Below, in pieces: positions 4,804 to 31,802 of a DNA stretch of 32,000 nucleotides. The stretch covers positions 1,710,001 through 1,742,000 of the forward strand of contig NZ_LT671858.1 of assembly GCF_900083515.1 (NCBI RefSeq), read 5' to 3'. The notes beneath the pieces are model-generated. The model did not search any database and had not been told where the DNA came from. It was given only the letters and a program-made list of their open reading frames with translations. Each line of letters starts with the position of its first letter. Within the stretch, counting starts at the first letter, position 1. A program made the position numbers and the translations under genes. The stretch comes from Cuniculiplasma divulgatum. Lineage in GTDB: Archaea; Thermoplasmatota; Thermoplasmata; Thermoplasmatales; Thermoplasmataceae.

Positions 4804-4841
4804 TGCCCAACGGAAAGGCTATAATGAAAATGCCTTTCTAG
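4804..4841 (+). repeat. Copy 2 of the 38-bp direct repeat (relic 3' end of an integrase gene)
   Basis: tgcccaacggaaaggctataatgaaaatgcctttctag still encodes PNGKAIMKMPF-stop. The two differences from copy 1 are synonymous (ccg/cct, ttt/ttc). Confidence 0.9.
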
Positions 4842-4845
4842 AATT

Positions 4846-5475: not shown

Positions 5476-5508
5476 ATCGACGTATTATCCTGAAAGCCAT
5501 CGTTAAGC

Positions 5509-6043: not shown

Positions 6044-6046
6044 ATT

Positions 6047-6454
6047 ATGGAAGCCGAAGATCTGTTCACTGAGGTGTTTCCCGCCATGGCGCTGATCATG
6101 ATTATTGCGGGTTTCCTTGACCCCACATTCTGGCCAATGCTCCTTCAGTGGCTGGTATCGGGAAAGGCATTCCTGATGGTTCTTGCAGCTTCAGCATTCC
6201 TGATAGTTATTGTTGGAGGCGTTGTTCTGATCTACTATGCAATCGTTGCTCTCATCTTCATAGCGATATTTTCTATTTTTGTCCTGGCTCCCCTGTATTT
6301 TCTTTATCTGGTTCTGGGGCTCACATACTCTGTGATTCTGGGGGCTGTTGTCGGTGCCGTTATCCTGCTGTATCTCGTGGAAACCAGGACGGTGAGGATC
6401 GAGCAACACACCATAACACTCTCCGTGCACAGGAAGTACATTGTCAAAAGGTAG
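6047..6454 (+). CDS. Polytopic membrane protein (about 4 TM)
   Basis: 135-aa ORF that is strongly hydrophobic throughout and sits immediately upstream of the ATPase gene. Confidence 0.65.
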   Translation: MEAEDLFTEVFPAMALIMIIAGFLDPTFWPMLLQWLVSGKAFLMVLAASAFLIVIVGGVVLIYYAIVALIFIAIFSIFVLAPLYFLYLVLGLTYSVILGAVVGAVILLYLVETRTVRIEQHTITLSVHRKYIVKR

Positions 6455-6459
6455 ACAGA

Positions 6460-8235: not shown

Positions 8236-8376
8236 ATGTAGCATGAAGAGGATGGCCAAAACTATAACGAATGCGATACCTGCCTTGACTAGACTCTTGA
8301 AAATAACGAATAGAATGAAGAATACAATCAGTGCTCCTCCAATCGAGGCTTCAATTGGTGAAATTGGAACTGCCAT
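8230..8376 (-). CDS. Possible 48-aa small membrane protein (below the ORF-track length cutoff)
   Basis: My translation is MAVPISPIEASIGGALIVFFILFVIFKSLVKAGIAFVIVLAILFMLHL, with two hydrophobic segments. It looks more protein-like than the plus-strand ORF 8204-8428 that it overlaps. Confidence 0.3.
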   Translation of the reverse strand: MAVPISPIEASIGGALIVFFILFVIFKSLVKAGIAFVIVLAILFMLHL

Positions 8377-8422
8377 GTTTTATATTGGTAGAAAGGGGAT
8401 AATAATCTTCCATTCTAACAGA

Positions 8423-8465
8423 AGTTAACCGCTAACCGTTATTCCAAGAGAGTTAACCATAAACT
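8423..8465. promoter_or_regulatory. GTTAAC-containing repeats upstream of parA (candidate centromere or operator)
   Basis: GTTAACCGCTAACCGTTA (8423-8440) contains the reverse complement of TAGCGGTTAAC, which occurs at 9516-9526. GTTAACCATAAACTT (8451-8465) matches GTTAACAGTAAACTT at 9521-9535 (13/15). Confidence 0.45.
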
Positions 8466-8490
8466 TTTAACTCTTTCCACACAAGCTTGA

Positions 8491-9246
8491 TTGATGATCA
8501 TATCCATCGCCAACCAGAAGGGAGGATGCGGTAAGACAACCACCGCAGCCAACCTCGGAGCATTGCTTGGGAAGAAACATCGCGTACTCTTAGTGGACAT
8601 AGACCCGCAGGGAAATCTGACCACTCATTTTGGTATCAACAAAGCGGAGCAGAAGCATACAATCTATGATGTGATGCTCAACGGAAGGATTGAGGACGCA
8701 ATCCTACAGAAAGACGGAATCGACATAGTGCCCAGCACCATCGATCTTGCGGGCGCAGAGGTGGAGCTAACCGGAAAAATTGGCCGTGAATACATCCTGG
8801 ATAACGAGCTAAAGAAGGTAGCGAGGAAATACGACTTCATCATCATTGATACGCCGCCCAGCCTTGGGATATTCACCATCAACTCGCTGGTTGCATCCGA
8901 GTACGTTCTAATACCTGTACAGGCTGAATTCTTTGCCCTGGAGGGATTGACGCAACTCATGAGAGTCATAAAACTCGTGAATTCAAGGCTTTCAAGAAAC
9001 CTGAAGCTGCTGGGATTGGTCATAACGATGTTCAATTCAAGAACAAGGTCTTCCAGGGAAGTTCTTGATGATGTCAGGAAGCATTATTCAAAGAACCTGC
9101 TTAAGACAATTATTCCAAGAAACGTGACCATAACGGATTCCACCATGGCAGGTTCTCCTATTGTAAAATACAGGAAAAATGCCCCTGCGTCAAAATCCTA
9201 TGTTGCGCTTGCAAATGAAATAGAGAGAATAGTCCAGGTGAAATGA
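8491..9246 (+). CDS. parA: ParA/Soj-type partition ATPase
   Basis: Deviant Walker A NQKGGCGKTT, then LLVDIDPQGN, then IIIDTPPSLG. 251 aa. Confidence 0.9.
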   Translation: MMIISIANQKGGCGKTTTAANLGALLGKKHRVLLVDIDPQGNLTTHFGINKAEQKHTIYDVMLNGRIEDAILQKDGIDIVPSTIDLAGAEVELTGKIGREYILDNELKKVARKYDFIIIDTPPSLGIFTINSLVASEYVLIPVQAEFFALEGLTQLMRVIKLVNSRLSRNLKLLGLVITMFNSRTRSSREVLDDVRKHYSKNLLKTIIPRNVTITDSTMAGSPIVKYRKNAPASKSYVALANEIERIVQVK

Positions 9247-9518
9247 TGGCAGATATTAAGAAGAGAGGCTTGGATAGTCTAATATCACAGAATTCCAGCA
9301 CCACTGCTGAAACAAGCGAAACACCAGAGAGATATACAAAGACCATAGGCTTCAAGGTGACGGAAAGGCAATATGAGACCTACAGAAGGTTTGCTAAATA
9401 CTTCGGAAATGAGGAACTCATAAAGAAGTGGCGTTCCGATCTTGACCACATAGCGCAGGAGAAGGGCAAGGATATGGAAAGCGTGGAAACTGAAATCAGG
9501 AAACGGTTAACAAAGTAG
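9243..9518 (+). CDS. Small ParB-like or centromere-binding adaptor candidate
   Basis: 91-aa ORF whose start overlaps the parA stop (ATGA). The N-terminal KKRGLDSLI resembles the ParA-stimulating GLGRGLDALI peptide of ParB proteins. The rest is unassigned. Confidence 0.55.
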   Translation: MMADIKKRGLDSLISQNSSTTAETSETPERYTKTIGFKVTERQYETYRRFAKYFGNEELIKKWRSDLDHIAQEKGKDMESVETEIRKRLTK

Positions 9519-9535
9519 CGGTTAACAGTAAACTT
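9505..9535. promoter_or_regulatory. GTTAAC-containing repeats downstream of the par genes
   Basis: GGTTAACAAAGTAGCGGTTAAC followed by AGTAAACTT. It is related to the sites at 8423-8465 and 10023-10042. Confidence 0.45.
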
Positions 9536-9552
9536 GGATAAAAGGGAGGTAT

Positions 9553-9993
9553 ATGACCTTGGTAAAAGCTAAAGAGAAGGAAAACACGTATTGGTACTTC
9601 TCCGATGGAGGTGGAGTAAGAATGATAACATATTCCGGCAAGCTGTTCTGGGTAACCTTTTTCGTAGTATTTGTCTTATTTTGGTTGTTTGTAGGAATTG
9701 GTGGCGCTATAGGTGGCGCGATTACTGGTGGAATAGTCAGTATTGCTTTCGAGGCCGTTGTAAGTTCACCAAAAGTAAAAAGATGGGATAGCATGCCCTT
9801 GAAACAACTTGAGGGTGAGGAAAAAAGCAAAACCCTTCCCTGGTCAAGCATGAAGAAGGTGACATTTAACGCGCCAGAACGGTTGGAGGTCACAGTGGAC
9901 GAACGGGTGCATAAAATGAAGGTTCTAACGGATGTGGAAGTGACTCAGAAACTCCTAAAGGACCATTTGGGAAGTAGATTTTCAGAGATTTGA
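9553..9993 (+). CDS. Membrane protein of unknown function (two Gly-rich TM segments plus a soluble C-terminal domain)
   Basis: 146-aa ORF with GGGAGG 6 nt upstream of the ATG. The hydrophobic stretch is FWVTFFVVFVLFWLFVGIGGAIGGAITGGIVSIAF. Confidence 0.6.
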   Translation: MTLVKAKEKENTYWYFSDGGGVRMITYSGKLFWVTFFVVFVLFWLFVGIGGAIGGAITGGIVSIAFEAVVSSPKVKRWDSMPLKQLEGEEKSKTLPWSSMKKVTFNAPERLEVTVDERVHKMKVLTDVEVTQKLLKDHLGSRFSEI

Positions 9994-10022
9994 AGAGTGT
10001 GGAGCCCGTTATCGAAAAACTA

Positions 10023-10042
10023 TTAACAAAGTCATGGTTAAC
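10023..10042. promoter_or_regulatory. Third copy of the TTAACAAAGTnnnGGTTAAC motif
   Basis: TTAACAAAGTCATGGTTAAC matches TTAACAAAGTAGCGGTTAAC at 9507-9526 (17/20). Confidence 0.4.
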
Positions 10043-10089
10043 CGAAAACCTCATTCGGAGAGACAAATTCGATATCATAAGGCGATAGA

Positions 10090-10260
10090 ATGGTCAAGTT
10101 GGATGAAAATCTATTCCAGTGCGAAATTTGCAAGCTCCACTATGAGAACAAGACCGATGCTGGTAAATGCCAAGAATGGTGTAGCCAGCATAATTCATGC
10201 AACCTAGAGATAACTTTCAGGTCCATTGAAGCTTCAAGAAGTAGGCGAACATTATCCTGA
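10090..10260 (+). CDS. 56-aa Cys-rich (zinc-ribbon-like) small protein, below the ORF-track cutoff
   Basis: My translation is MVKLDENLFQCEICKLHYENKTDAGKCQEWCSQHNSCNLEITFRSIEASRSRRTLS, with a CxxC...CxxxC...C pattern. Confidence 0.45.
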   Translation: MVKLDENLFQCEICKLHYENKTDAGKCQEWCSQHNSCNLEITFRSIEASRSRRTLS

Positions 10261-10267
10261 TTTTTAT

Positions 10268-10319
10268 GTCACTAAACTTGTAATTTTAGTAACGCCGCTA
10301 AACACAGGATTTTAATAAC
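10268..10319. promoter_or_regulatory. Two tandem inverted-repeat sites upstream of the resolvase gene (res-like or autoregulatory)
   Basis: GTCACTAAA-N8-TTTAGTAAC (10268-10293) and GCTAAA-N8-TTTAATAAC (10297-10319) share the same arm-spacer-arm geometry. The second overlaps a TATA-like TTTTAATAA about 30 nt before the ATG at 10348. Confidence 0.45.
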
Positions 10320-10347
10320 GTATGCGCCCCTAAATTCTATGAATTAA

Positions 10348-10953
10348 ATGACACTCGCTTTTGCCTACGTAAGAGCCAGCACGCAGGAAGAGGTCAGGCA
10401 GGGCTCAAACGAGAGACAGAAGGAGGTAATCAGACAGTGCGCCGAGCCCAGAGGCTACGAGCTTGAATTCTTTGAAGACAAGGCAAAATCCGGGAAGAAT
10501 ACGCAGAGGCCCGAATTCGAAAGGATGCTGAAATCCCTTGACCTGAGGCCTAAAGTGGTCATAGTATCAAAGATCGACAGGTTTGCCCGATCCTTATCCG
10601 ACCTGTTAAGAACGCTTGAATACCTTGACCAGAAGGGCGTAGGATTCGTCAGCGTCAATGACCCGGGCATAGATACCACCACCCCAAATGGAAGACTCCT
10701 GCTGCAAATTCTGGGCGCCTTTGCTGAATTTGAAAGGAACATAATCAATTCCCGCACCAAAGCTGGCAGAGAGCAGGCAATGAACAAGGGAGTTAAATTT
10801 GGAAGGCCTGCACTGAAAACCAGGAATGGGAACTTCATAGACAGGAGAAAGGTTCTAGAGCTGAAAGGAAAAGGTCTGTCCGCCAGAGCTATAGCGAAGT
10901 CCATGGAATGCTCAGTAACCCCGATACTGAGCATTCTTAAGGAAACCCCATAG
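10348..10953 (+). CDS. Serine recombinase (resolvase/invertase family)
   Basis: AFAYVRASTQEE carries the catalytic Ser context. It is followed by VIVSKIDRFARS and FAEFERNIINSRTKAG, and a C-terminal HTH (GKGLSARAIAKSM). 201 aa. Confidence 0.9.
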   Translation: MTLAFAYVRASTQEEVRQGSNERQKEVIRQCAEPRGYELEFFEDKAKSGKNTQRPEFERMLKSLDLRPKVVIVSKIDRFARSLSDLLRTLEYLDQKGVGFVSVNDPGIDTTTPNGRLLLQILGAFAEFERNIINSRTKAGREQAMNKGVKFGRPALKTRNGNFIDRRKVLELKGKGLSARAIAKSMECSVTPILSILKETP

Positions 10954-11214
10954 TCTCACGGAAAGAGAGAGAGTCGCCGAACGCGTCAGTGTCCTTCTTA
11001 TATATTATATAACTAATACAATAGACATAACATACCAGAAAAATGGAATTTAGTTATCTTTTGAACAGCATTATCCTATCTGGAAGCCTCACTCGTTTTC
11101 TGACACTCTCTCTCCAAAATGTGAAATTACCATTTTACAACACTGCAATATTCGGCTTGTTCGGAAGTCTTAAGAATTTTGCGTGTCCAATAAAATAGTT
11201 GCAAGGGTAATTCT

Positions 11215-12258
11215 ATGTCAATGAAAGACCCCATATCGTTTGTGGAGGCAAAGGTGAAGGAACGAGCCAAGGAGACGAGCAACATAAAGAATGCAATCAT
11301 CTTCGACATGGACTTCAAGCCACCAAGAATACTCATAAGAAGCGAATTGAACAAGGTAACAAACGACCTTGCTGATTACGTTAACCTGAATCTTCCAAGG
11401 CACATAATCATCTATGGTTCCAAGGGTTCAGGAAAAACCCTTAGCGCGCTAACAATAGCATCCGCCTTCAGGGAGAGCAAATCCATGCCTTTCTTCTATG
11501 TGAATGCCAGAGAGAATCCCACTTCAACAAAGATCTATAGAAAGATGACAAGAATAGACAGCCGGGGTCACGACATAGACGAGGTGAAGAGCAGGCTCGA
11601 TTCCATGCTCTCTGGGAAATCCATCGTCATTCTTGACGAAGTCGATTTCCTCCAGGATTATGACGTACTGTATCACTTATCCAGACACACAAAGGCCAAT
11701 CTTATCCTATTAACGCAGAAGGTCTACTGGTACAAGGACATGAACGACGAAAGTGTCAAGAGTTCGATGCAACCTGACCACATAGTGTTCCATGAATACA
11801 ACGCTGACGAGATTCGCGAAATATTGAAAATGAGGGCAGAGGAAGGCCTGAACAAGTTTGACAGGGAAGCTTTGGGACTGCTTTCGGCAATGCTCGTCAG
11901 GGAATACAGGAGCGATGCAAGAATAGGGATAAAAGCTCTTGAGATACTGGGCAGGATCAACAAATGGAACGATGACGCAGTTAAATCAGCATTAAGGCAG
12001 GCTTACGTTGAAGTGGAAGGCGAAACCCTCAGGAACCTTGGCGGCAGAGATTTATTGATTCTCGCCTCGTTGATCAAGAATCAGGACACCAACAAGGCAT
12101 ATTCAGAAGTAACAAATATCAACAATTTCCTTGTAAAGGGAATGAGCAAGTCAACATTCTTCCAGAGTGTCAACTACCTGCAGAACCTTGGCCTTGTCAC
12201 GCTGATAAAGAAGAAGATAGGCAGATATTATACTATGGAGTCGCAAATATTATTATAG
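11215..12258 (+). CDS. Orc1/Cdc6-family replication initiator
   Basis: Walker A IIYGSKGSGKT, Walker B IVILDEVDFL, an AAA+ lid and a C-terminal winged-helix-like region. 347 aa. A TATA-like AATAAAATA sits at 11189-11197. Confidence 0.85.
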   Translation: MSMKDPISFVEAKVKERAKETSNIKNAIIFDMDFKPPRILIRSELNKVTNDLADYVNLNLPRHIIIYGSKGSGKTLSALTIASAFRESKSMPFFYVNARENPTSTKIYRKMTRIDSRGHDIDEVKSRLDSMLSGKSIVILDEVDFLQDYDVLYHLSRHTKANLILLTQKVYWYKDMNDESVKSSMQPDHIVFHEYNADEIREILKMRAEEGLNKFDREALGLLSAMLVREYRSDARIGIKALEILGRINKWNDDAVKSALRQAYVEVEGETLRNLGGRDLLILASLIKNQDTNKAYSEVTNINNFLVKGMSKSTFFQSVNYLQNLGLVTLIKKKIGRYYTMESQILL

Positions 12259-12301
12259 GATGAGTCTATAGTATCAGGAGAGCTGAAAAAGAGGTTGTGA
12301 A

Positions 12302-14842
12302 ATGGTCAGAAATGAAGATGAATTTTACCAAGACTTAAAGAATATTTTTATTGGTGCCAAAGTTGAGGGAAATTCTGGCTTTGTAAATTTAATGAAGATA
12401 AAGTCGACATATTTTGAAAAGATTCTCAAATTTTTGAAATCTGATATTGAAAAGGAAACGGCTGAATTCCCAGAATTCAAAGAAGAGTTATTTACTAAGC
12501 TCCATACATTCTTCAGAACTTACTTTTCAGAATCAGGAAGTATATATTTTAGTTATACGCCGTTAAAATCAAAAGTATATGAAAAAATATATACCAACAA
12601 TCAGGACGTTATGCTTTTTTGGAAAACCAACATGCTTTACTATGTTAAGACTGACAATCTATACAAGACTTTATCAATTAGTTGCGAAATAGAAGGTTCA
12701 GAATATACAATCAAATTTGATGCAACTCAGATAGAGGGGAAGAGGTCTAACGAGAAAAGGGTACTAATCTTTGAGCTTGAGAGCATAAACGATAGAACCA
12801 TAACGTTCAAACCGCAATATTCAGAACATGGAAAGGAAACAAAGGTATCTGAGATTTTAAAAGAGTTCTATAGAAACAACATAAATATAACTGAAGATCA
12901 ACTAGATGGATTGTTCAAGACGTTTAAGAGACAGACAGAAGTCGACTATTTTATCAATAAAGATGCAAAGGCATTTTTGAGAGAGCAATTCGATCTATGG
13001 TTAAAGAATTACATTTTTGATGATGAGAGCGATTATTCGGAAAAGAGACTTAAACAGTTAAAAACCTTAAAATATATTGCTTACAAAGTAATTGATTTTG
13101 TTGCCCAATTTGAGGATGAACTGGTAAAAATATGGAATAAGCCTAAATTCATTCTAAACTCGAACTATGTCGTAACCTTAGACCGGATTGTGCAACAGGA
13201 GGGTGGTTACCAACTCCTTCGTGAAATAATAAGTCATGCTAATTTTTCTGAACAGGTTAAAGAATGGGTAGATTTAGGAATAGTCAAAGATGATTTTAAA
13301 GAGAATTCGATTATAGTTGCGGAAGGTTCTTCAATCAGTGTAAACAGCAAGTACGAAACCCTCCCCATCGATACCAAATATTTTAAAGATATGGAGCTAA
13401 AGATAATACAGCTATTTTCTAATTTAGACGCGGAGCTTGATGGGTACTTAATACACGGCGAAAATTATCAGGTTCTTAGGACAATTTTTCCCAAATGGAG
13501 GGAAAAAGTCGAATTGATTTATTTAGACCCCCCATTTAATACAGGTAACGATTTTATCTTCCTAGATAACTATCAAGTATCTTCTTGGTTGACAATGATC
13601 AAAAATAGACTTGACATTTTATATCCTTTCCTCAATCCACAAGGCAATCTATATCTACACCTTGACCACATATCAGAGCATTATGCGAGAATCTTGTTGG
13701 ACAATACTTTCGGAGCTGATAACTTCAGAGCGAAGATAACATGGAATACGGGCGAAAATATATCTGGATTTAAGTCACAGGCATTAAACTGGATCCGCCA
13801 AGCTGACTTTATACACTACTATGTAAAAGGACCATCACCAGTTTTTCATAAAGCATATGAACTGCTAAATCGAGAAGATGCCAACATAGGTTGGTTGGAT
13901 GTTATTGGCGATAATAAAAAGTCACTTTACGTAGAAAAATGGAACAACGGAAGCTTTGTTCGTGATAGTGTTAAGTATAGAGTTAAAGCCAAAGGTACGG
14001 TCTGGAACGACATCTATTCTTTCCAGTATAGCGAGCCCAGGATCACAGAGAGTTTATCATTTGCCAGTAACCAGAAACCGGAGAATTTGCTCAGACGGAT
14101 TGTTCAAACTTCATCCAACCCACAAAATTTAGTGTTAGATTGCTTTCTTGGGAGTGGTACTACAACCAGTGTAGCTCAGAAGCTTTCAAGAAAGTGGATA
14201 GGAATAGAAATGGGAGACTACTTCAACGAAACCTACTTAGACGTGGTAAAAATAAGTAAAACAAAGGCTGAGGAGGATTCTGAAAACAATGAAGAGCTAA
14301 TAGAACGAAATAATCTATCTATCATAAAAGTGATTTCTGAAACAAAGAATGAAATGACCGTTATCATGAGAAAAATTGGGGCACTTGGAAGAATGAAAAT
14401 CGTATTGCATGGAGACAAAGAGTTCCGAGCTATCCATAGCCCTGTTGTCAGGCGGCCACATCTAAGCAAAGATGTAAATTGGAATGGGGGAGGATTTTTC
14501 AAGTACTATGAGGTGGAACAGTATGAGCAAGCACTAAAAAACACCCATTACAGTGATTCTGAGCCCTTTTTTAAGTTGAATACTGATGATGTTTACAATC
14601 AATATGTTTTCCTAAAAGATAAAAAAATGATTGACAGAATGGAAGTAGATTACAAGAATAATAAAATAAAGATCAAGTACGATGAGATTTATCCTAATAT
14701 CGACCTCGCGGAGACTCTGTCTAATATTAAGGGAAAGTTCATCAAGCGAATAGAAAAAGATGCAGTTATCTTTGAGGACGATGAAAAAGTATACTTCTCA
14801 GAAATAGATTTCCAAACAATTAAACCCCTAATTTGGTGGTAG
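12302..14842 (+). CDS. mod: Type III restriction-modification methyltransferase (Mod, beta-class N6A/N4C) with a long N-terminal extension
   Basis: Motif IV (ELIYLDPPFNTG) precedes motif I (LVLDCFLGSGTTTSVAQKLSRKWIGIEMG), with NQKPENLL between them. 846 aa. The stop lies 1 nt before the res start. Confidence 0.85.
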   Translation: MVRNEDEFYQDLKNIFIGAKVEGNSGFVNLMKIKSTYFEKILKFLKSDIEKETAEFPEFKEELFTKLHTFFRTYFSESGSIYFSYTPLKSKVYEKIYTNNQDVMLFWKTNMLYYVKTDNLYKTLSISCEIEGSEYTIKFDATQIEGKRSNEKRVLIFELESINDRTITFKPQYSEHGKETKVSEILKEFYRNNINITEDQLDGLFKTFKRQTEVDYFINKDAKAFLREQFDLWLKNYIFDDESDYSEKRLKQLKTLKYIAYKVIDFVAQFEDELVKIWNKPKFILNSNYVVTLDRIVQQEGGYQLLREIISHANFSEQVKEWVDLGIVKDDFKENSIIVAEGSSISVNSKYETLPIDTKYFKDMELKIIQLFSNLDAELDGYLIHGENYQVLRTIFPKWREKVELIYLDPPFNTGNDFIFLDNYQVSSWLTMIKNRLDILYPFLNPQGNLYLHLDHISEHYARILLDNTFGADNFRAKITWNTGENISGFKSQALNWIRQADFIHYYVKGPSPVFHKAYELLNREDANIGWLDVIGDNKKSLYVEKWNNGSFVRDSVKYRVKAKGTVWNDIYSFQYSEPRITESLSFASNQKPENLLRRIVQTSSNPQNLVLDCFLGSGTTTSVAQKLSRKWIGIEMGDYFNETYLDVVKISKTKAEEDSENNEELIERNNLSIIKVISETKNEMTVIMRKIGALGRMKIVLHGDKEFRAIHSPVVRRPHLSKDVNWNGGGFFKYYEVEQYEQALKNTHYSDSEPFFKLNTDDVYNQYVFLKDKKMIDRMEVDYKNNKIKIKYDEIYPNIDLAETLSNIKGKFIKRIEKDAVIFEDDEKVYFSEIDFQTIKPLIWW

Positions 14843-14843
14843 A

Positions 14844-23534: not shown

Positions 23535-24057
23535 ATACAACATGGAGAAGAGACTTGGATCACTGTTTACCTATTACTCATATCCGATCCAGATAAGAAG
23601 GTCAATACACTCTTCAAACATAATAGAGAGGATGAATAGGGAGATCCGTAGAAGGATCAAGGTCATTGACTCACTGCCAACAGAGAACAGTGCAATGAAA
23701 ATTGTATACCTGAGAGCAGCAGAATTGAATGAGAGGTGGTCACACATTGTGATTAGAGACATTGTCAAAAAATAGTTGAAAAAATACTGATAGACTTCAG
23801 TTGAGAATTTGTCACTTCTCGACAGAGCCCCTAAAGAATGTAGTTTATACAATTTGTCAATTGTTAGCTCTGCGTATATTACCCGTGAAAATCAACTAAA
23901 AGTTGACAATGTCTGATTAGAGGATATTATAAATGCAAGGACGGGATCAGGGAAATGTTCCAGGAGAGGTATCCTTAAGTTTACACAAGATTCTGGACGG
24001 TATGGACAGACCTCTCAGAATGGAGAGATTCTTCTTTGTGTAACCTGAGAAATCCAT

Positions 24058-24491
24058 TCACAGGCGGTACGATTGATCTCTAATCCTGTTCTTTATTGCT
24101 GTCCTCTGCCTTACGAGGAAATTACGATTCCTGCAAATGTTCCTCGATTCGCCTATTTCTCCAGACGGAAGATAGGATTCAGGCGTGTATTCCTTCGTGT
24201 ATAGATCCAGCAATATATGTGCATCGTTTTTGCCCGTCTTGTTCATAGATTCTGCGATCAGTCTCACCTTCAGTGGATTGGCCACTTTGATCGTGTGGCG
24301 GGTAAGAATGAGACTAACTCGTCTATAGTGGGGGAGGCCTCCACTATAATCGTAGCTTCACTTATACTCTCAAGGAATCTGCTGAACTCCTCTCTGCTGG
24401 TAAGTACACACCCCTCCTTCACTATCTCACCATCCTTGTCGATTATTCCGTACGTTTTGTATTTCCCTACATCCATAGCTATGCTATACAT
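24058..24491 (-). pseudogene. IS110-family transposase, N-terminal fragment, frameshifted and truncated by the IS256 element
   Basis: MYSIAMDVGKYKTYGIIDKDGEIV... (24270-24491) and ANPLKVRLIAESMNKTGKNDAHILLDLY...RNRNFLVRQRTAIKNRI (24058-24285) lie in different frames. The coding sequence stops near the IS256 right end at 24009. Confidence 0.7.
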
Positions 24492-24580
24492 TTCTTATCA
24501 CCTTACCATGAGCTGCAGCATTATCTGACTTGCTGCAACTTCAACTAAGGGAAAAATCGAGCATCTCAGTCTAAAAACCA

Positions 24581-25398
24581 TTAACCGAAGACAATTTCCA
24601 GCTTGGGTATCCAATCTTTGATGACCCCGTATCGAGCGCATCTCATCCCGCCGAAATTCTCGTTGATAGATCCGCCCACAGTGGCTACGCTCACGTTGGA
24701 GGGATCAGGAGGAAAGAAGAAACCATGCTTCCTGCATCGGAAGTTCCACGAAAATTAAAAGGAGTTACCTACAAAAATGGCTTGTGTTACTATTTCCCTC
24801 GTTTATGATTCAATTTTTTTTTTCGTGGGTACATGCGTGCCGGTGTGCTGGATTGCCTCTGGTATGAACACTATATGAGATACATGGAACGCCATAAATA
24901 TTTCGTATGTTCGTGAGCATGTATATGAAGCGTTCAAAATATAACTTATTAAGTTGAATACAGGGAATTATGATAGTTTTCTATGGAAAATCTGATGGAA
25001 CTTCCGCTGCATGCTGCATCGGCTTCGAATAGAGTGGTGCCCGCTTCCGCGACCATGTAACCGTTCTCAATCGAGACCTCGATCCTGTTCATGCGTTTCA
25101 TGTCCAGCACTATCACTCCTTCCACCGGGACCACGGCACCGGTGGTGCTCAAGCCTCCACCCCTGACGACCACCGGAATCTTATGTCTTGCCGCGATGCC
25201 CATCGCTACGGTTACCTGGCCTGCGCTTTGTACCTGAAGCACTATCTCTGGCAGATGCTCGTAGCGATCTATGCTCCCTTTGCTGTAGAGGGACAATCTT
25301 GTTCTGTCCAGAAACACGTTCTCGCTCCCAAGCAGTTTTTCAAATGCAACTATGACCTTTTTCGAAATCATGTATTCTCCATCCCAAAGAGTTGGCAT
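24581..25398 (-). pseudogene. FAD-binding oxidase (GlcD-like, FAD_binding_4-type N-terminus), split by a MITE and 3'-truncated
   Basis: The N-terminal fragment is ...PEIVLQVQSAGQVTVAMGIAARHKIPVVVRGGGLSTTGAVVP...AEAGTTLFEADAAC. Removing 24738-25012 restores the frame into RKHGFFFPPDPSNVSVATVGGSINENFGGMRCARYGVIKDW..., which then stops prematurely at 24581-24583. The start codon is uncertain (25371 or 25398). Confidence 0.7.
24738..25006. mobile_element. 269-bp MITE, a non-autonomous derivative of the IS1634-family element
   Basis: It has the same 11-bp termini as the full IS (CGGAAGTTCCA at 24738-24748, TGGAACTTCCG at 24996-25006). A 6-bp target duplication CTGCAT lies at 24732-24737 and 25007-25012. 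An internal T-run (gattcaattttttttttcgtgg) resembles the subterminal region of the IS right end. Confidence 0.8.
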
Positions 25399-25675
25399 CT
25401 TATAGCTTTTATTTGGGATATAACCATTCGATGATTGCCGGAAAATTTCTCTATGTTTTCCCAAGAGTGCCATGGTTTCCACGCTTAGCGATGGAGAACT
25501 TTGTTAATTATGGGCCTGGTTTCCAGTTGGATCTGCATTCAGGGGGATGTAAAAGGGTGCGAATATTGTTTCCCCCGGTTGCAGGAAGAGAGCAATCAGC
25601 ATAGGACTCACCTGATCCGATCGCACGTCTTTACATGTACAACGTGTACAAGTGGCCATTCGTAACCCCATTGCC

Positions 25676-26152
25676 TTAAATGGAAGCTTTCCCTCGCGGG
25701 AGGATAGCCGCTGAATAGACTAGGAAAAAGTATGAGATTACTGCCACGATGAATCCAATTGACATAGCAAAGGAGAAGACGTTATCCTGAAAGCCGGAAA
25801 AAAGGAACAGAAGGCCGCTTATGCCTGCCAAGAGGATTGAGAGTGATGCAACTGCGCTTATGGCAGCCGACCTGAAATCTGCCCTCATGATAGCCAATAC
25901 AAATATCATCAGGGAAAGGAGCCCGATGAGGACGCCATTCATCATATGAATCATTAGCTCGGGCACCGATATCATAACAGTCATCATAGCATAGGGTTGA
26001 AACGCTACCCGAGCGGTAGGGAACGGTGCGAAGAGGTTCATCCATATCCCGAACACAAACTGCACGGCGAGAAGCAACAGTTCTATCGCTATGACCACTA
26101 TAAAGAAACTCATGCCCTGCTCGTTTACAGAATTTGCATGCGTCCCTGACAT
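25676..26152 (-). CDS. Polytopic membrane protein of unknown function
   Basis: 158-aa ORF with 4-5 hydrophobic segments. The overlapping alternative-frame ORF 25782-26165 is Arg/Cys-rich and implausible. Confidence 0.55.
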   Translation of the reverse strand: MSGTHANSVNEQGMSFFIVVIAIELLLLAVQFVFGIWMNLFAPFPTARVAFQPYAMMTVMISVPELMIHMMNGVLIGLLSLMIFVLAIMRADFRSAAISAVASLSILLAGISGLLFLFSGFQDNVFSFAMSIGFIVAVISYFFLVYSAAILPRGKASI

Positions 26153-26196
26153 CGGTTCTAGCCATGCTTCAAATATTAATAAGGATTCCCATTAAC

Positions 26197-27691
26197 CGTA
26201 ACTGGTCAGTCTGATGTGCCCGATCCTTTCATCCCGGTTTAGCACTCCTTTTTATTACGGATGACGTATCTGTAATGAAGCTTTTTCCCCTCAGCTTTGA
26301 TGTGTAATATACGGAAAAGATCTTCGTATAGATATCAGCGCCTCTATCTGATCTGGATCCGCCTGATATTTTCCTGTATATGACCGAAGGTCTCAGTGCC
26401 CTCTCTGCCCTGTTGTTTGTCGCTTCAACATCAGGATCAATGACGAAACGGAACAACCACTCCTTCTTCCGTTTCAGAAGATTCTTAACAAACTTTCTCG
26501 ATCTCGCGTTTTCATAATCTGTATCCAGGAGGAAGACAAGTCTGTGGTAAAGATTCTCAACATCATCCATGGTGCCATGGCCATGGAATCCCTTTGCCTC
26601 ATCATATACTGATTGAATGGATCTCTTTATTCCTGATCCCTCCTCACCGTAGAACTGTTCCAGTTCCTTTGCATCACAGATTATGTGAGACCAGCAGTAC
26701 TGCTGATTGTTGCCTGTCTCTTTGGCAAGTGTTTCGAATGCGGAATGCCTGTCATGAACATCGGTTCCATTATGTTCACCGAGAACCTCCATGGGAACAT
26801 CATGGCCGTTTCCCCTGGATATGTGGAATATGGCCTCTGTCTCTGTGAGAAATGTCCAGAGGTTGTAATTATCGCCGTCAATCCTCCATGAAGTGGAATC
26901 CATGTGGCGGTAGGATGATTCCCTGATACTGTCCAGCAACCTGGTATATTCATCTCCAAGTGCATTGGAGAGTTGTGACAGGATATTCTGTATCTCCCCT
27001 TCTGATACATGGATGCCGAATACCTCTTTCATCATCCTCGAAACGTTCTCAATGCTTATTCTCATGCCTATGCGGAAGTAGGCAACGGTGATCATTGCCC
27101 TCAGTGATAATGTTGCATTGGGAAATGCATCGGGTATTTCTGGTTCATATACCCTGTGGCATTTTGTGCAGTATAATCGATCCATACTGTACTCTATGAT
27201 ATCAGGTTTTATGACCGGGATATCCTCTATGATCCTTGACCTTGATCCCTTTCTCCTCAGGGGGGAATGGCACTCGGGGCATTCCTTCAGATCCAGGTGG
27301 ATCCTTATGCTTTCTGTTGGCTTTTTTCTGATCCTGAAGTGCCCGGGGTGACCTTCCTGTGATCCCGGTTCTCTCTTCCCAGGGTTTTCATGATCCATGA
27401 TGTCAGGTTTTACATCCTGTGGTACTGCAATGTCATAGGTCTTTCCATTCTTCACACCTACGGTTGCAGGATGTCTCTTTTTGTATTCCTCAAGTTCCCT
27501 GTTTTTGTCCTCCAGACGTTTTCTCAATTGATCGAAGGCCCTGAGAATCTTATCAATCATGTCCTGGTCTCCGGGTGTTTCGGCAAGTAATTTAATCATT
27601 CTAATAATATAATGCATTACTTATATATAGACCTTTCGGTTCATAACACTGCGTCAGAATAAAAGTGTGGCACAAGGGACTGAACTGTTAC
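26197..27691 (-). mobile_element. IS66-family insertion sequence (single-ORF type, 1495 bp)
   Basis: Terminal inverted repeats GTAACTGGTCAGTCTGATGTGCC and GTAACAGTTCAGTCCCTTGTGCC (18/23). An 8-bp target duplication CATTAACC lies at 26189-26196 and 27692-27699. Confidence 0.85.
26229..27617 (-). CDS. IS66-family transposase
   Basis: 462-aa intact ORF with an N-terminal coiled coil, a zinc-finger CPECHSPL...CTKCH, a DDE region (HMDSTSWRIDG..., VHDRHSAF, CWSHIICD) and the C-terminal ATNNRAERALRP motif. Confidence 0.85.
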   Translation of the reverse strand: MHYIIRMIKLLAETPGDQDMIDKILRAFDQLRKRLEDKNRELEEYKKRHPATVGVKNGKTYDIAVPQDVKPDIMDHENPGKREPGSQEGHPGHFRIRKKPTESIRIHLDLKECPECHSPLRRKGSRSRIIEDIPVIKPDIIEYSMDRLYCTKCHRVYEPEIPDAFPNATLSLRAMITVAYFRIGMRISIENVSRMMKEVFGIHVSEGEIQNILSQLSNALGDEYTRLLDSIRESSYRHMDSTSWRIDGDNYNLWTFLTETEAIFHISRGNGHDVPMEVLGEHNGTDVHDRHSAFETLAKETGNNQQYCWSHIICDAKELEQFYGEEGSGIKRSIQSVYDEAKGFHGHGTMDDVENLYHRLVFLLDTDYENARSRKFVKNLLKRKKEWLFRFVIDPDVEATNNRAERALRPSVIYRKISGGSRSDRGADIYTKIFSVYYTSKLRGKSFITDTSSVIKRSAKPG

Positions 27692-27699
27692 CATTAACC

Positions 27700-29131
27700 C
27701 ACACTCTCCGCATGTCCAACCGGATCAGACATGCATAATTCATCGGGAATGTAGTTTATTACCATACAAAAGGTTCTCATTATTTATTTATCCTGGCAGA
27801 CGACTTAAAATTAGGGGGATTAATATTGTATTATGAAGACACAAAATAACGCCCCGTTGTGTAATGTAAAGGATACAAAAGAATTTTTCTCCTCAGCCTT
27901 GAAGAACATGTTCGCACCTGTCATTAAGGAACATTCCATCTATACTGAAGGCGATGTATCAGGAACACTGAGGAATACCATTGCAGATCATCTGTACATT
28001 GAAACATATGTGAGAAATTACGGAGATACAGGAACACCATCAGGTGATACCATGTTCAGGCTGTTGAAGGGAATTGCCTCTGAATCAGGTTCACACAGGA
28101 GAAAAGGATCTGACAGGAATAAGAAGAGGAAAACAGTGAGAACTGGAATACAAACGATAGAGTCACTGCTGGATCTCATCGTTAAGAAGGCAATCTCCAT
28201 GGGTGCCTTCTCAACAGCCGTGAATGTTGCAATAGACGAACATGACCATCCATATTATGGTGCTGACAGCAGATATCTCATGGGTGTGGGATCAAAGAAG
28301 TTCAGGGGTACAGACAGGGCATACAGATTTGCAACACTGGAATCTGTGAAGAGGGGTGAGAGGTCTGTACTTTCAGTCATGCGACATGATCAGCCTGACG
28401 GTATTGACAGTTCCAGGGAGGTAGAGACACCTATTGAACATGCGGTGGAACCTGGAATAAAGATCAACATCATTCTCATGGATCGTGGCTATCTGGATGC
28501 AGGTGTGATGAATAATGTGGATACCATGGGGATGAAATACATTGTACCTGCAAGGGACAGTCCAAGGGTGTTGAGATTAAAGAAAAAGGATACGAATTAC
28601 TCTGAAAGGAGAGAGGTGGCTAAGGCCAGCTTCGTACATGTGAAATACCATAAGGACGGTAAACTTCATGATTTCTCATTTTATACAAACATTGAGGTCA
28701 CTGAAGACCTGTTGAGAATCTTGCAGAGATATACCGGGAAAGGTGGAGTATTGAGAATGGTTATGGAGAGAAGATGGTACTTGAGGAGAAGAGACATTCC
28801 CCTGACATTGGCGTGAGATATTTCATATTCTATTTTTCAGTGCTGATCTATAATTTATGGACTCATAAATCTCATGAGAAGTCTTTCAGGACTGGAATGG
28901 ATCATATTCATGGATTTCGTAATAGACATGAAAATGGGGAGATGGGGATCAATAACCGGTGATTTTGGATAAAGTTGAAATCAAATTCAGGTCCTGGAAG
29001 GATAGAGAAGGAAGATCAACAGCCATGGCTATGATCATGAATCACATGAAGAGATGCTGTCATGAAAAGTGAAATAAGATTGGTGAAACTAGAAAATTAA
29101 GTGTCAGTTATCAACACACGCGGAGAGTGTG
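27700..29131 (+). mobile_element. ISH3/IS4-like insertion sequence (about 1.43 kb) with a degraded transposase
   Basis: Terminal inverted repeats are CACACTCTCCGCATGT at the left end (27700-) and CACACTCTCCGCGTGT as the reverse complement of the right end (ending at 29131). I found no clear target duplication. Confidence 0.7.
27833..28962 (+). pseudogene. DDE transposase (ISH3/IS4-like), frameshifted
   Basis: Frame 1 contains VAIDEHDHPYYG and IILMDRGYLD. The third catalytic block, EIYRERWSIENGY...VRYFIFYFSVLIYNLW, lies in the frame of ORF 28774-28962. A frameshift therefore falls at roughly 28700-28740. Confidence 0.7.
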
Positions 29132-29147
29132 AATGAATAGGAATATG

Positions 29148-29154
29148 TATATAT
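29148..29154 (+). promoter_or_regulatory. TATA box candidate for cassette 2
   Basis: TATATAT is centred about 29 nt upstream of the ATG at 29180. Confidence 0.35.
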
Positions 29155-29179
29155 GGTGTGGTGATTTGTTTTTATTATT

Positions 29180-29800
29180 ATGGCAAAGAGAATAAATAGT
29201 ATAAAGGTTGTCCATTTTGATGAAACTACTGAAAATGGTGTCAGAACACAGCAAGCATCTGTACTTATTGAAATTGAAGGCGAAAGACCTAAATTAATTC
29301 AGGGAACGCAAGTATTGAAAGGAGATGTAAACGGTAAACACACTATCAGCTATACTATATTCAATGGAAGAAATATTGGGAAAGCAACCTACTCCATAAA
29401 TACAATGGAAAAGAATGAAAATGATTCAAAACTAAAAATTGTGGGCATTAGTGAGGGAAAAGTTTGTTGCGGGAATAGTAAACCGATAGACACAACATTA
29501 GTGGTACCTAATAAAACATACTCAAGCAATGATCCATCTATTCAATGCGACATTTGTCAGGAATTAGTTAAGGAAATATGCGAGGAATTGGCAGACGGCA
29601 TACCTTCGGATGAGATATGTGCGGACGTATGTGTTGCGGGAGCAGGAGATATTTGCTTATTATTTGTTGAAACCTTAATCGGTTACCTTATCTGTCTATC
29701 AATTTGCGCCTCTCTCTGTGCACTGGCAATAGAGGAAATAACAGATTACGGTTGTAGCGTGGGAGCCGAGTACATATGCCAAAAGGTAGGTGTATGCTAG
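29180..29800 (+). CDS. Cysteine-rich protein, paralogue of 3043-3684 (halocin C8-like C-terminal domain, 12 Cys)
   Basis: 206 aa. The C-terminus DPSIQCDICQELVKEICEELADG...ICLLFVE...GYLICLSICASLCALAIEEITDYGCSVGAEYICQKVGVC aligns with cassette 1 through DP..I.C.IC, LADG, and GA.YIC.K..GC. Confidence 0.75.
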   Translation: MAKRINSIKVVHFDETTENGVRTQQASVLIEIEGERPKLIQGTQVLKGDVNGKHTISYTIFNGRNIGKATYSINTMEKNENDSKLKIVGISEGKVCCGNSKPIDTTLVVPNKTYSSNDPSIQCDICQELVKEICEELADGIPSDEICADVCVAGAGDICLLFVETLIGYLICLSICASLCALAIEEITDYGCSVGAEYICQKVGVC

Positions 29801-29820
29801 ATGGTTTACATTAACGTGGG

Positions 29821-30072
29821 ATGATTATAGTGGTAAAATATCATAAACCAGTTAGTTATTTGAGTCTTATCGCAGGTTTCCTCTTCATAGCGTTTTTATT
29901 AATCGGAGCAATTGCGATAATAGTCATACATTCACATGTTCTGGCCTTTATTGATCTGGGTTTGTTACCGGTAATCGTAATTGTGGGAACAGTAGGATAT
30001 ATAAAAAGCCTAAAAAGCGGTTCAAGACAAGAGAGAATGAGAGAACTCTTTGAAAATTCAAAGAGGAAGTGA
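29821..30072 (+). CDS. Small two-TM membrane protein with a basic tail, paralogue of 4265-4519
   Basis: 83 aa with the same position, length and topology as its paralogue, and a conserved SG..RQ.R..E.F tail. Confidence 0.65.
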   Translation: MIIVVKYHKPVSYLSLIAGFLFIAFLLIGAIAIIVIHSHVLAFIDLGLLPVIVIVGTVGYIKSLKSGSRQERMRELFENSKRK

Positions 30073-30075
30073 AAA

Positions 30076-30285
30076 ATGGTTTCAAAACACGTTCACAGGT
30101 ATATCATAGGAGGGGTGGCCATATTTTTCATAGTTTATGTGCTAGTAGCAAATGCCTATCTTAGTTTCAGGGACTTTGCATTGTATGCAGCGTTGCCTTC
30201 ATTAGTGATAATGATTGCTCTTGCCTTTTTTTACCGCTATCTTGAAAACAGTATCAAATTTGAGCGGAGGACAGGAACTCAATAA
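30076..30285 (+). CDS. Small two-TM membrane protein, paralogue of 4557-4781
   Basis: 69 aa starting 3 nt after the upstream stop. The N-terminus is MVSKHVHRY vs MLSKYPHH. Confidence 0.6.
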   Translation: MVSKHVHRYIIGGVAIFFIVYVLVANAYLSFRDFALYAALPSLVIMIALAFFYRYLENSIKFERRTGTQ

Positions 30286-30417
30286 CCCGAAAGAAAAGTA
30301 TGAGGGGTTGGGGAAAGAGATGGTATTATAGTCTTTATCATAACATTGTACCCTTATTATACATAACGTAATAATTACTGCCGCATATATTTAAATATTC
30401 AAAATTGTTATATAATT

Positions 30418-30918
30418 ATGAAACGGCTTGAAATAAACAACGCAAAGGAGATGTCTGTTGCTATACGGAATGAGATATTCCGTTCTGAGGAATCAAGGTA
30501 TGATCACCGACTGCACGGCCTTCTGCTCGTCAGTGAGGGAATGAGCTGCTATGAAGCTGGAAATATATTCGGGGAAGATCCCAGAACCGTAGAGAGATGG
30601 GTTAAGAGATTCAACGAGAAAGGTTTCAACGCCCTCAGGGAAGGAGTGAGATCCGGACGGCATTCAAGGCTTACGCCTCAGCAAATGGATCAGATAGGCA
30701 GCGATCTGAGAAAGAATCCGGGAGAATTCGGATATGATCAGAATCTCTGGGATGGGAAACTTCTCATGCACCACATATGGGAGAAGTTTCATGTGAAGAT
30801 TGGTGTAAGGACATGCCAGCTCATATTTCACAGGCTTGAATTCAGGAGGAGAAAACCAAGAGGAATCATAGCCAAAGGCGATCCTGATGAACAGTACGCT
30901 TTTAAAAAAACTCTCTGA
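30418..30918 (+). CDS. IS630-family transposase, N-terminal HTH part (ORF A)
   Basis: The sequence EAGNIFGEDPRTVERWVKRFNEKGFNALREG...LWDGKLLMHHIWEKFHVKIGVRTCQLIFHRLEF shows the paired HTH architecture. It ends just after an A7 run. Confidence 0.75.
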   Translation: MKRLEINNAKEMSVAIRNEIFRSEESRYDHRLHGLLLVSEGMSCYEAGNIFGEDPRTVERWVKRFNEKGFNALREGVRSGRHSRLTPQQMDQIGSDLRKNPGEFGYDQNLWDGKLLMHHIWEKFHVKIGVRTCQLIFHRLEFRRRKPRGIIAKGDPDEQYAFKKTL

Positions 30919-31453
30919 GGATCTGAAGAGAGGCGATACGGATATATGGTCACTGGATGAATGCCATTTCTACCAGCATGGAACCACCCTGGCCATGTGG
31001 ATACCACCTGAAGACAAGGATCCAACAGTATTACAGTATCCCACAAGGAAAGGTGTCAGCGTATTCGGTGCAGTGAACATCAGGACGGGAGAATTCGTTG
31101 GCATGATGTCTAATGTATTCAACGCCATAACTTTCAGCAGATTTCTTACCGTCCTGATGAAAAGGGGGAAGGGAAAGAAGATGCAGATCATCCTGGACAA
31201 CGCCAGGTACCATCATGCAAAGTTGATCCTTCCATGGCTGGAGGAACACAAAGATCAGCTGTTCCTTGACTTTCTACCACCATACTCACCGAAACTGAAT
31301 CCCATAGAGAGGGTTTGGAAGCTCCTGAAAAAATTGAGGTTACATAACCAGTATTTTCCTGACCTGAAAGGAGTTATAAGAGTGGTTGCAAAACAGTTCC
31401 TGTTATGGAATGGGGAGAATGGAACCCTCAGAACACTATGCTACATGGAATGA
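30887..31453 (+). CDS. IS630-family transposase, DDE catalytic part (ORF B, +1 frame relative to ORF A)
   Basis: DIWSLDECHF (D), ILDNARYHHA (D) and PPYSPKLNPIERVWKLLK (E) are present. It overlaps ORF A across the A7 run at 30904-30910. Confidence 0.75.
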   Translation: MNSTLLKKLSEDLKRGDTDIWSLDECHFYQHGTTLAMWIPPEDKDPTVLQYPTRKGVSVFGAVNIRTGEFVGMMSNVFNAITFSRFLTVLMKRGKGKKMQIILDNARYHHAKLILPWLEEHKDQLFLDFLPPYSPKLNPIERVWKLLKKLRLHNQYFPDLKGVIRVVAKQFLLWNGENGTLRTLCYME

Positions 31454-31481
31454 TTGTGTGTATGCGGTAATACTTATTTCG

Positions 31482-31802
31482 TTATGTATAGTTAACAAAC
31501 ATCTCCACCCATCTTTTACAGAAGGATTTGCTTTTTGAGAATTCAATGAAGCTTGCTTTAACAGTATCAACCATCATTTCCTGGTCTTTCGCAAATGTAT
31601 GTGACACTACTTTCTTGATGAATTTCCATATGATTTCTATTGGATTCAGTTGTGGTGAATACGGAGGAAGAAATACCAGTTCAATGTCCAGTATCTCTGC
31701 GGTTATTGCAACATTCTCTGTTCTGTGGGCAAAGAAGTTATCCAGTATGAGAATGATATGATTGAACGGATTACTGTATCTTATCTCATTCAGGAAATCC
31801 AT
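31482..31802 (-). pseudogene. Fragment of a second IS630-family transposase (C-terminal DDE part only)
   Basis: ILILDNFFAHRT...FLPPYSPQLNPIEIIWKFIKK. No N-terminal half lies upstream, and the 3' end abuts the inverted repeat of the neighbouring IS630 element. Confidence 0.65.

Follow-up and report, generated by a model that had tools for sequence, protein, structure and literature searches.

The stretch of DNA analysed here, referred to as the window, comprises 32,000 nucleotides of the archaeon Cuniculiplasma divulgatum S5 (assembly GCF_900083515.1, contig NZ_LT671858.1, positions 1,710,001 to 1,742,000 of the forward strand), and our subject is a three-gene cassette near its right end. A preliminary description, made from the sequence alone, had placed open reading frames (ORFs) for proteins of 206, 83 and 69 residues there, and all three proved to be real; they lie on the forward strand, separated by gaps of 20 and 3 nucleotides. 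The products are called Ha, M2a and M3a and the set cassette 2; a related set near the left end of the window, cassette 1, encodes Hb, P175, M2b and M3b. Table 1 lists the coordinates. For comparison, 26 related loci (cited below by L numbers) were gathered and their gene families were mapped by tblastn, and one of the sources, a metagenome scan with a narrow alignment, gave 5 loci.

The C-terminal part of Ha matches the model TIGR04449 (halocin_C8_dom) with 52.9 bits (E=5.7e-14) against a curated cutoff of 24 bits, and the alignment covers residues 123–206 and the whole 69-position model. The earlier suggestion that the Cys-rich gene is of a bacteriocin-like kind was thus borne out, the family being one of archaeocins. 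RefSeq names WP_148690163.1 "halocin C8-like domain-containing protein", and the protein is present in Table S2 of a 2026 archaeocin survey (bioRxiv 10.64898/2026.07.27.741052). The domain contains 12 Cys and a CC pair lies upstream of it, as had been counted before; in the last 84–88 residues there are 12 Cys in Ha and 10 in Hb, with eight Cys columns invariant across 15 sequences, and those of Ha sit inside hydrophobic helices. In the AlphaFold2 model (pLDDT 77), a beta N-domain of seven strands (residues 5–110) and a five-helix C-domain are joined by a linker, residues 111–120, with a pLDDT of 58. A Foldseek search with this model gave no usable structural neighbour (best match in PDB, E=0.17; best in BFVD, E=1.4e-3 with a TM-score below 0.4), and a profile search of PDB sequences returned 0 matches. 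No cassette protein had a significant match in Pfam, PHROGs or PADLOC, and the toxin domain was recognised by NCBIfam only.

The N-terminus of Ha, MAKRINSIKVVHFDETTENG, lacks an RR motif, hydrophobic segments are absent upstream of residue 145, and an upstream extension of the ORF is impossible. None of 15 family members matched PF22862 (Hac8_like_N, HalI) at the sequence level at E<=1. An exhaustive profile search found just 43 relatives among 1.8 billion cluster representatives. One of these, the 282-residue P0139, has an RR signal of the twin-arginine translocation (Tat) type, was reached at E=1.6e-4 and scores 37.5 bits with TIGR04449; a form with a general secretory (Sec) signal and short "leader + domain" forms are also among the 43. 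By sequence, the P0139 match links the Ha family to precursors of the haloarchaeal type. The similarity of Ha to the 293-residue Hc type is weak (hhalign 8.9%, E=0.004), and Hc therefore counts here as an analogue by position, its tail being Cys-rich in a similar way, and not as a proven homologue.

Regarding the N-domain, the Ha family profile also matches repeated stretches of about 45 residues (motif NG..TISYTI.DG) in giant Big_9/cadherin-like repeat proteins. Locally, the N-domain weakly resembles the final strands of these immunoglobulin (Ig)-like repeats, with no direct Pfam match, and this may hint at an Ig-like beta-sandwich, a hint that falls short of a classification. Two other identities were considered for the N-domain and rejected: RHS/YD repeats, since the giant proteins are Big_9/cadherin-like and the resemblance is a motif of about 45 residues, and an equivalent of HalI, which was rejected at the sequence level for lack of a PF22862 match and is disfavoured by the independent recombination of N- and C-domain described below. 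The homologue in Acidiplasma cupricumulans is named 'Saposin B-type domain-containing protein' in UniProt, a label that Pfam did not reproduce; a helical bundle of the saposin kind, stapled by disulfides, would be in keeping with a membrane-active toxin.

Ha and Hb are related over their full length and in both domains (BLASTP 26% identity, E=3e-19; hhalign 99.4%, E=1.3e-21), and M2a and M2b share 33% identity (E=2e-8). Cassette 2 had been described as a mirror of genes 1, 3 and 4 of cassette 1 in order, size and topology, and for its first two genes this view holds. The third genes are alike in position and size only: M3a and M3b show no significant similarity (E=21; hhalign probability 0.1%), so that homology between them is rejected, and M3b has just one strong hydrophobic segment. 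Hb scores 19.6 bits with TIGR04449, below the cutoff, and is a 'hypothetical protein' in RefSeq. M3b is 55–65% identical to its counterparts in L002, L003, L008 and L009. P175 is the most conserved cassette gene, 73–84% identical in L003, L007, L014 and L022, that is, from Cuniculiplasma to Metallosphaera; it accompanies toxins of the Hb type only and has no family match in any library searched.

The M2 proteins form a family of about 72–87 residues with two transmembrane (TM) segments, a basic tail and no Cys, for which Pfam, NCBIfam, PHROG and PADLOC gave no significant match. In all 12 non-redundant loci with downstream sequence, an M2 gene follows the gene of the Cys-rich protein (H), either directly or past a membrane-protein gene, P175 or P131, and the proposed conservation of the trailing gene beside Cys-rich genes in other genomes was therefore found for M2. 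M2 genes also occur without a toxin gene, as M2b orphans in L010/L011 (Ferroplasma acidiphilum) and L016/L017, and stand intact next to toxin genes that have decayed, namely a frameshifted Ha in L013, a 37-residue Hb remnant in L014/15 and an Hb pseudogene in L003. At 90% identity, the same database yielded 86 clusters of M2 and 18 of H, and all M2 clusters come from acidophilic Thermoplasmatales except for one bin labelled Parvarchaeota. M3a is conserved in L001/L002 (97%) and L003 (48%, E=2.5e-16), and third genes pair by type, M3a with M2a and M2c, and M3b with M2b and M2d. L012 and L023 have the toxin gene and M2 alone; the conserved core is therefore H and M2, two genes and not the three that had been proposed as a minimal unit. 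M3a is possibly an accessory immunity protein or membrane partner.

Every cassette gene family is under purifying selection. Wherever dS was unsaturated, the ratio of nonsynonymous to synonymous substitution rates (dN/dS) was below 0.3 (range 0.03–0.29), with values of 0.16–0.17 for Ha, 0.29 for M2a (few substitutions), 0.14 for M3a, 0.03 for M2b, 0.18–0.27 for M3b and 0.07 for P175. The view that the paralogues are old and kept by selection is in line with these values (dN/dS about 0.16). The M2a gene of an I-plasma metagenome-assembled genome (L001 6642–6891) is split by a frameshift, owing either to misassembly or to recent inactivation, and the gene is intact in the near-identical L002.

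The cassette 2 Ha gene is expressed. In the published C. divulgatum proteome (PMC7285479, supplement), CSP5_1806 is represented by 5 peptides and CSP5_1776 by 4, and the arCOG column of that supplement gives both as "Halocin C8 family bacteriocin". Since both toxins were detected, the copy walled in by insertion sequence (IS) elements is not dead. The 48 nucleotides between the upstream IS and the Ha start are conserved with L008 and L002 from the exact IS end onward and, judged by their sequence, probably act as the promoter. They include an AT-rich, TATA-like stretch at ~29143–29155, 25–37 nucleotides upstream of the Ha ATG, a distance that implies a short or absent leader.

Comparison of the loci points to an exchange of modules. 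Against L008, the promoter and the first ~30 codons of Ha are 98–100% identical; from codon ~120, where the halocin domain starts, the identity falls to 60% and then to 40%. Against L002, by contrast, the window is 97–100% identical from that codon through M3a. In terms of domains, Ha and L008 share 91% of the N-domain and 67% of the C-domain, and Ha and L002 share 85% and 99%, with the breakpoint at codon ~120. Ha is thus a mosaic, its toxin domain having apparently been exchanged as one block with the membrane genes, in the manner of polymorphic toxins. In L008, L004 and L012, an Ha-type toxin is paired with the M2b type of cassette 1. Over nine Ha loci, M2 identity correlates in a Mantel test with that of the C-domain (rho 0.71, p=0.004); the values for the N-domain are rho 0.36 and p=0.12. 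This pattern is that of polymorphic toxin-immunity loci, and it argues that the N-domain is no cognate immunity domain.

Two further loci show the cassette genes in unusual arrays. L022 (1078–3978; ACXJ01011341.1) carries Hb-P175-M2b, without M3b, and Ha-M2a-M3a in direct tandem ~320 nucleotides apart, as compared with 24 kb in the window; its whole Hb is 96% identical to that of the window and its M2b 67%. L003 (1487–5535; GCA_023270075.1, WOZZ01039367.1) contains a run of ten cassette-family genes in the order Ha, M2c, M3a, M2a, X73, P131, M2d, M3b, Hb pseudogene, P175, M2b and M3b fragment, and by analogy this array resembles the orphan-immunity arrays of polymorphic toxin loci.

Cassette 2 lies outside the integrated element of the window, as had been stated. 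The 3' end of tRNA-Ala is repeated at attR, and these attachment (att) repeats bound an element of ~19.2 kb (1488–20719). Besides cassette 1 it contains a putative integrase, genes for ParA and a resolvase, and restriction-modification genes of type III. A conserved right-end sequence of ~24 nucleotides (20677–20700) precedes attR, and right end and att also follow the cassettes of L001, L002, L008 and L009; in L001/L002 two cassettes stand at the right end of a similar element. On both sides of cassette 2, terminal inverted repeats delimit the IS elements that had been noted there. The upstream IS has a weak DDE_Tnp_1 match and its right end abuts the cassette 2 promoter region; no target-site duplication was found around it, which suggests an IS-mediated rearrangement, and its left flank is unrelated to the cassette-upstream sequence of L008. 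The IS-flanked layout recurs in several metagenome assemblies. In L004, L008, L009, L012, L013 and L023, the Ha gene lies ~100 nucleotides past tRNA-Ala with no IS, and the homology of such tRNA-adjacent loci to the window starts exactly at the IS end, at 29132. It follows that the IS elements are late insertions and not the vehicle; of the proposal that the module travels in different mobile contexts, the mobility stands and the role of the IS elements does not. Judging from these sequences, the vehicle appears to be a family of tRNA-Ala integrative elements. A scan of viral contigs found no relatives, so that nothing points to a virus as the carrier.

The same cassette was found at 90% identity or more in Ferroplasma, Acidiplasma, Thermoplasma and I-plasma. 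Decayed remnants lie downstream of two tRNA-Ala genes in the crenarchaeon Metallosphaera cuprina (L007 1382–4823; CP002656), namely P175 (73%), M2b (63%), M3b, a truncated Ha (73%) and fragments of M2a and X73; they imply transfer between phyla of acidophilic archaea. In L008 (3848–5192) and L009 (108–1453), Ha-M2b-M3b stand alone between an intact tRNA-Ala and the right end with att, within 1.25 kb and with no integrase. Such a mini-element could be what remains of an element that has otherwise decayed, or else a cassette that is mobilised in trans.

Table 1. Features of the window (positions are those of the 32,000-nucleotide stretch)
Feature	Position	Strand	Remarks
Ha, halocin-C8-family precursor, 206 aa	29180-29800	+	WP_148690163.1 / CSP5_1806, C. 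divulgatum S5
Ha N-domain, residues 1-117	29180-29530	+	7 beta strands predicted
Ha Asp118-Pro119	29531-29536	+	in low-confidence linker of the model
Ha Cys-rich helical C-domain, residues 123-206	29546-29797	+	12 Cys
M2a, 83-aa membrane protein with two TM segments	29821-30072	+	basic C-terminal tail (SGSRQERMRELFENSKRK); proposed immunity protein
M3a, 69-aa protein with two TM segments	30076-30285	+	starts 3 nt past the M2a stop; optional third gene
Retained promoter region of cassette 2 (putative)	29132-29179	+	conserved with L008 and L002 from the exact IS end onward
Hb, paralogous halocin-C8-family precursor, 213 aa	3043-3684	+	CSP5_1776; inside the integrated element, next to the integrase
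P175, 175 aa, two TM segments and ~110-aa soluble domain	3728-4255	+	no counterpart in cassette 2
M2b, 84-aa paralogue of M2a	4265-4519	+	BLASTP
M3b, 74 aa	4557-4781	+	TTG start; motif GNSAHFVALSIS; positional analogue of M3a, not homologue
tRNA-Ala(CGC)	1435-1506	+	ARAGORN, Rfam; 3' end 1488-1506 = attL core
Putative tyrosine-type integrase	1556-2848	+	phrog_1 E=6e-5; no Pfam match; adjoins tRNA and att repeats
attR, direct repeat of the tRNA-Ala 3' end	20701-20719	+	1 mismatch; 0 expected by chance
IS element ('ISH3-like' in the preliminary description)	27700-29131		frameshifted DDE transposase 27833-28962; inverted repeats CACACTCTCCGCATGT / ACACGCGGAGAGTGTG
IS630-family element	30360-31488	+	TA-flanked; 72 nt downstream of M3a; DDE_3 (4.7e-32) and helix-turn-helix (HTH) domains
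Mutator-family transposase fragment	20847-21464
DDE_Tnp_1 gene	21835-23481		IS4-like transposase among IS debris
Truncated FAD (flavin adenine dinucleotide)-binding gene	24949-25482	-
IS66	26229-27617	-

Taken together, we consider it probable, at about 60%, that cassette 2 encodes an archaeocin of the halocin C8 family whose producer is protected by M2, and perhaps by M3, and that such cassettes are exchanged in blocks and spread by tRNA-Ala integrative elements. Cassette 2 would then be a small operon of C. divulgatum S5. Ha would be a leaderless precursor, with a beta-rich N-domain of ~117 residues followed by a hydrophobic, helical halocin-C8 domain of ~85 residues and 12 Cys, and from its family this domain would be expected to act as a membrane-active toxin. 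M2a, with its basic tail in the cytoplasm, would most likely shield the producer's membrane as an immunity protein, and M3a would be an optional accessory membrane protein. Recombination at the domain junction would exchange the toxin domain together with the downstream membrane genes, orphan or toxin-less M2 genes persisting elsewhere. As cargo of tRNA-Ala-targeting integrative elements, cassette 2 would originally have stood beside tRNA-Ala; a newer element of 19.2 kb with cassette 1 would have integrated into the same tRNA-Ala and displaced it, and the several IS elements that then inserted would have left it stranded at a distance of 27.6 kb, where it has kept an intact promoter and its gene is still expressed. 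The two diverged sets would thus provide two weapons and two immunities in the competition among wall-less acidophilic archaea.

Several observations weigh against this interpretation. A Sec or Tat signal in the toxin, and a transporter gene nearby, were looked for and not found, and the peptides of CSP5_1806 and CSP5_1776 came from extracts of cell pellets and not from supernatant. M3 is of two unrelated types and is sometimes missing. The Mantel signal may stem from the mere physical nearness of the C-domain to M2. In L022, the C-domain is 99% identical to that of the window Hb, P175 84% and M2b 67%, and the break lies directly after the toxin stop; because of this mismatch, the coupling of toxin and M2 is frequent and not strict. 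The literature searched contains no activity data for any family member from a non-halophile. The earlier notion of diversified toxin/immunity sets stands for the membership in a toxin family, and for the membrane proteins immunity is still the proposed function.

Other explanations of the cassette deserve consideration. That cassette 2 is a decaying, non-functional relic between IS elements would agree with its position in 8.4 kb of IS debris and with the rearrangement suggested by the upstream IS, which has no target duplication. Yet its three frames are intact with dN/dS of 0.14–0.29 against the closest relatives, the promoter region is kept, the IS-flanked layout is recurrent in metagenome assemblies, and the detection of CSP5_1806 with 5 peptides largely refutes this explanation, which we regard as scarcely credible. 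It also seems very unlikely that the Cys-rich proteins bind metals or act in redox reactions in metal-rich acid mine water. The high Cys content, the acid mine drainage habitat and the UniProt name 'Predicted metal-binding protein' would suit such a role, but the pattern and spacing of the Cys fit the halocin C8 model with a score beyond its curated cutoff, hydrophobic helices contain these Cys, and a metal chaperone would explain neither the mobility and polymorphism of the genes nor their pairing with small membrane genes.

The question then is what the small membrane proteins do for a toxin. M2 and M3 could be a device for the export or maturation of a leaderless toxin, such as a holin-like or insertase-like pair through which the hydrophobic Cys-rich domain would enter or pass the membrane, in place of immunity. 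In favour of this, the toxin has no signal peptide and no transporter gene is nearby, M2 invariably accompanies the toxin gene downstream, and the mismatch in L022 (M2 67%, toxin domain 99%) is what would be expected of a non-specific helper. Orphan M2 genes and those beside decayed toxins, however, would be useless as exporters, and M2 tracks the toxin domain in the Ha loci. The similarity of M2b (84 residues) to a holin family (Phage_holin_3_6) is very weak, E=0.048, and far below any threshold, and we hold the export function to be unlikely. Quite unlikely, too, is an addiction module that stabilises the tRNA-Ala elements by post-segregational killing, the toxin attacking the host membrane from inside and M2 neutralising it. 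The cassette adjoins the integrase or the element end, L008 and L009 have kept it alone between attL and attR as if it were hard to lose, and a protein without secretion signal was found in cell extracts, all in keeping with addiction; the twelve conserved Cys and the homology to a secreted, disulfide-rich archaeocin nevertheless point to an active form outside the cytoplasm, the diversification of C-domain and partner and the orphan-partner array of L003 are typical of inter-strain weapons, and intact M2 genes without toxin are common.

The archaeocin with M2-based protection can be compared with several known systems. In the survey (bioRxiv 10.64898/2026.07.27.741052, summarising Sun et al. 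2005), ProC8 of Natrinema sp. AS7092 is described with a Tat signal, an N-terminal HalI (PF22862) and the neighbours halR, halT1-3 and halU. A precursor of the ProC8 type is further defined by a cleavage that releases an active peptide of ~76 residues, which kills related archaea. Halocin C8/ProC8 and Ha have in common a C-terminal, Cys-rich, hydrophobic TIGR04449 domain that ends a precursor of 200–290 residues, and an N-terminal part larger than the mature peptide. Unlike ProC8, the cassettes of the window have no signal peptide, no PF22862 (15 members searched) and no ABC transporter in the window; their neighbours are IS elements (cassette 2) or the integrase with P175, M2 and M3 (cassette 1), and one or two separate genes for small membrane proteins follow downstream. 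The recombination of the Ha N-domain independently of the toxin domain does not fit with a cognate immunity domain in cis.

Fusions of halocin C8 domains with RHS proteins in Nitrolancea hollandica are mentioned in the same survey (Makarova et al. 2019, cited in bioRxiv 10.64898/2026.07.27.741052). The cassettes share with polymorphic toxins a conserved N-terminal part, a swappable C-terminal toxin domain, partner genes directly downstream, orphan partners, arrays (L003) and a location in mobile islands. They differ in that the N-terminal part has only ~117 residues and lacks RHS/YD or filamentous repeats. A secretion system associated with them is likewise absent, membrane proteins serve as the partners, and the coupling is imperfect (L022).

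The small hydrophobic proteins that confer immunity to class II, leaderless and circular bacteriocins have 50–90 residues and one to three TM segments, are encoded right after the bacteriocin, and are common as orphans in non-producers. M2 is like them in size, TM segments, gene position and orphan copies, but has no sequence relation to them, and the cassettes have no ABC transporter or DUF95-type partner. Some M2b members, for example in Ferroplasma acidiphilum (L010 3501–3755; CP015363), carry the NCBI name 'DUF2614 family zinc ribbon-containing protein'. The TM hairpin of M2b aligns weakly with DUF2614 (PF11023; 20.6 bits, cutoff 21) and M2a does not match; the zinc-ribbon half is absent from M2, which has no Cys, and NF002796 scores 23 against a cutoff of 108. 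From these alignments, the label looks like an over-annotation.

Five diverged sub-lineages (Ha, Hb, P0106, P0108 and P0112) have in common an Asp-Pro pair four residues ahead of the first Cys, and the Asp-Pro bond is acid-labile. One could speculate, with little confidence, that these are archaeocins adapted to pH ~1, exported without leader via vesicles or the small membrane proteins, whose toxin domain is then released by protease-free acid hydrolysis at Asp-Pro, M2 replacing the HalI in cis. If this were true, the halocin C8 family would have in M2 its first known immunity protein that is embedded in the membrane.

Few archaeal antimicrobial proteins have experimental backing, and halocin C8 is among them. 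The first gene of cassette 2 has already been filed under its family by RefSeq, arCOG and the 2026 preprint, arCOG files Hb there too, and the presence of the family in Thermoplasmatales has been catalogued. What our analysis adds therefore concerns the partner genes and the dynamics of the unit; the kind of system is not new. The 2026 survey states that no gene around halC8 has been characterized and that immunity is known solely as HalI in cis (bioRxiv 10.64898/2026.07.27.741052). The M2 family, the two-gene core, the block exchange, the att-flanked mini-cassettes and the absence of Tat signal and HalI domain were not described in the literature searched, a search that did not include Makarova et al. 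2019. C. divulgatum S5 is a cultivable wall-less acidophile with two diverged, expressed toxins of this family, each with a candidate membrane immunity gene acting in trans, and the export, maturation and self-protection of non-halophile members become directly testable at this locus. As cargo of tRNA-Ala elements, such weapons would move among the genera of acid-mine archaea, even into Metallosphaera.

The element around cassette 1 also carries two mad8-like/AAA ATPases, ParA, a serine resolvase and type III restriction-modification (6148–8235, 8491–9246, 10348–10953, 11215–12258 and 12302–17819), the last with a methylase of 846 and a res protein of 991 residues; besides carrying a toxin it is a defence island. 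A stretch of 420 nucleotides in it (17862–18281) has no clean ORF and is 86% identical to the region directly upstream of the tandem cassettes of L001/L002. It is rich in CTTCGC/GCGAAG, matches no Rfam family and folds far better than shuffled sequences on both strands (z -5.05 and -5.70). It may encode a structured RNA, serve as an origin or partition site, or consist of clustered palindromes. The 8.4 kb from attR to cassette 2 (20723–29131) are mostly IS debris (Table 1). On the other side of cassette 2, the IS630 element has inverted repeats of 43 nucleotides (30358–30400 and 31448–31490), and its transposase is encoded in two overlapping frames, the HTH part at 30418–30918 and DDE_3 at 30887–31453, a layout that reflects either a programmed frameshift or an inactivating mutation.

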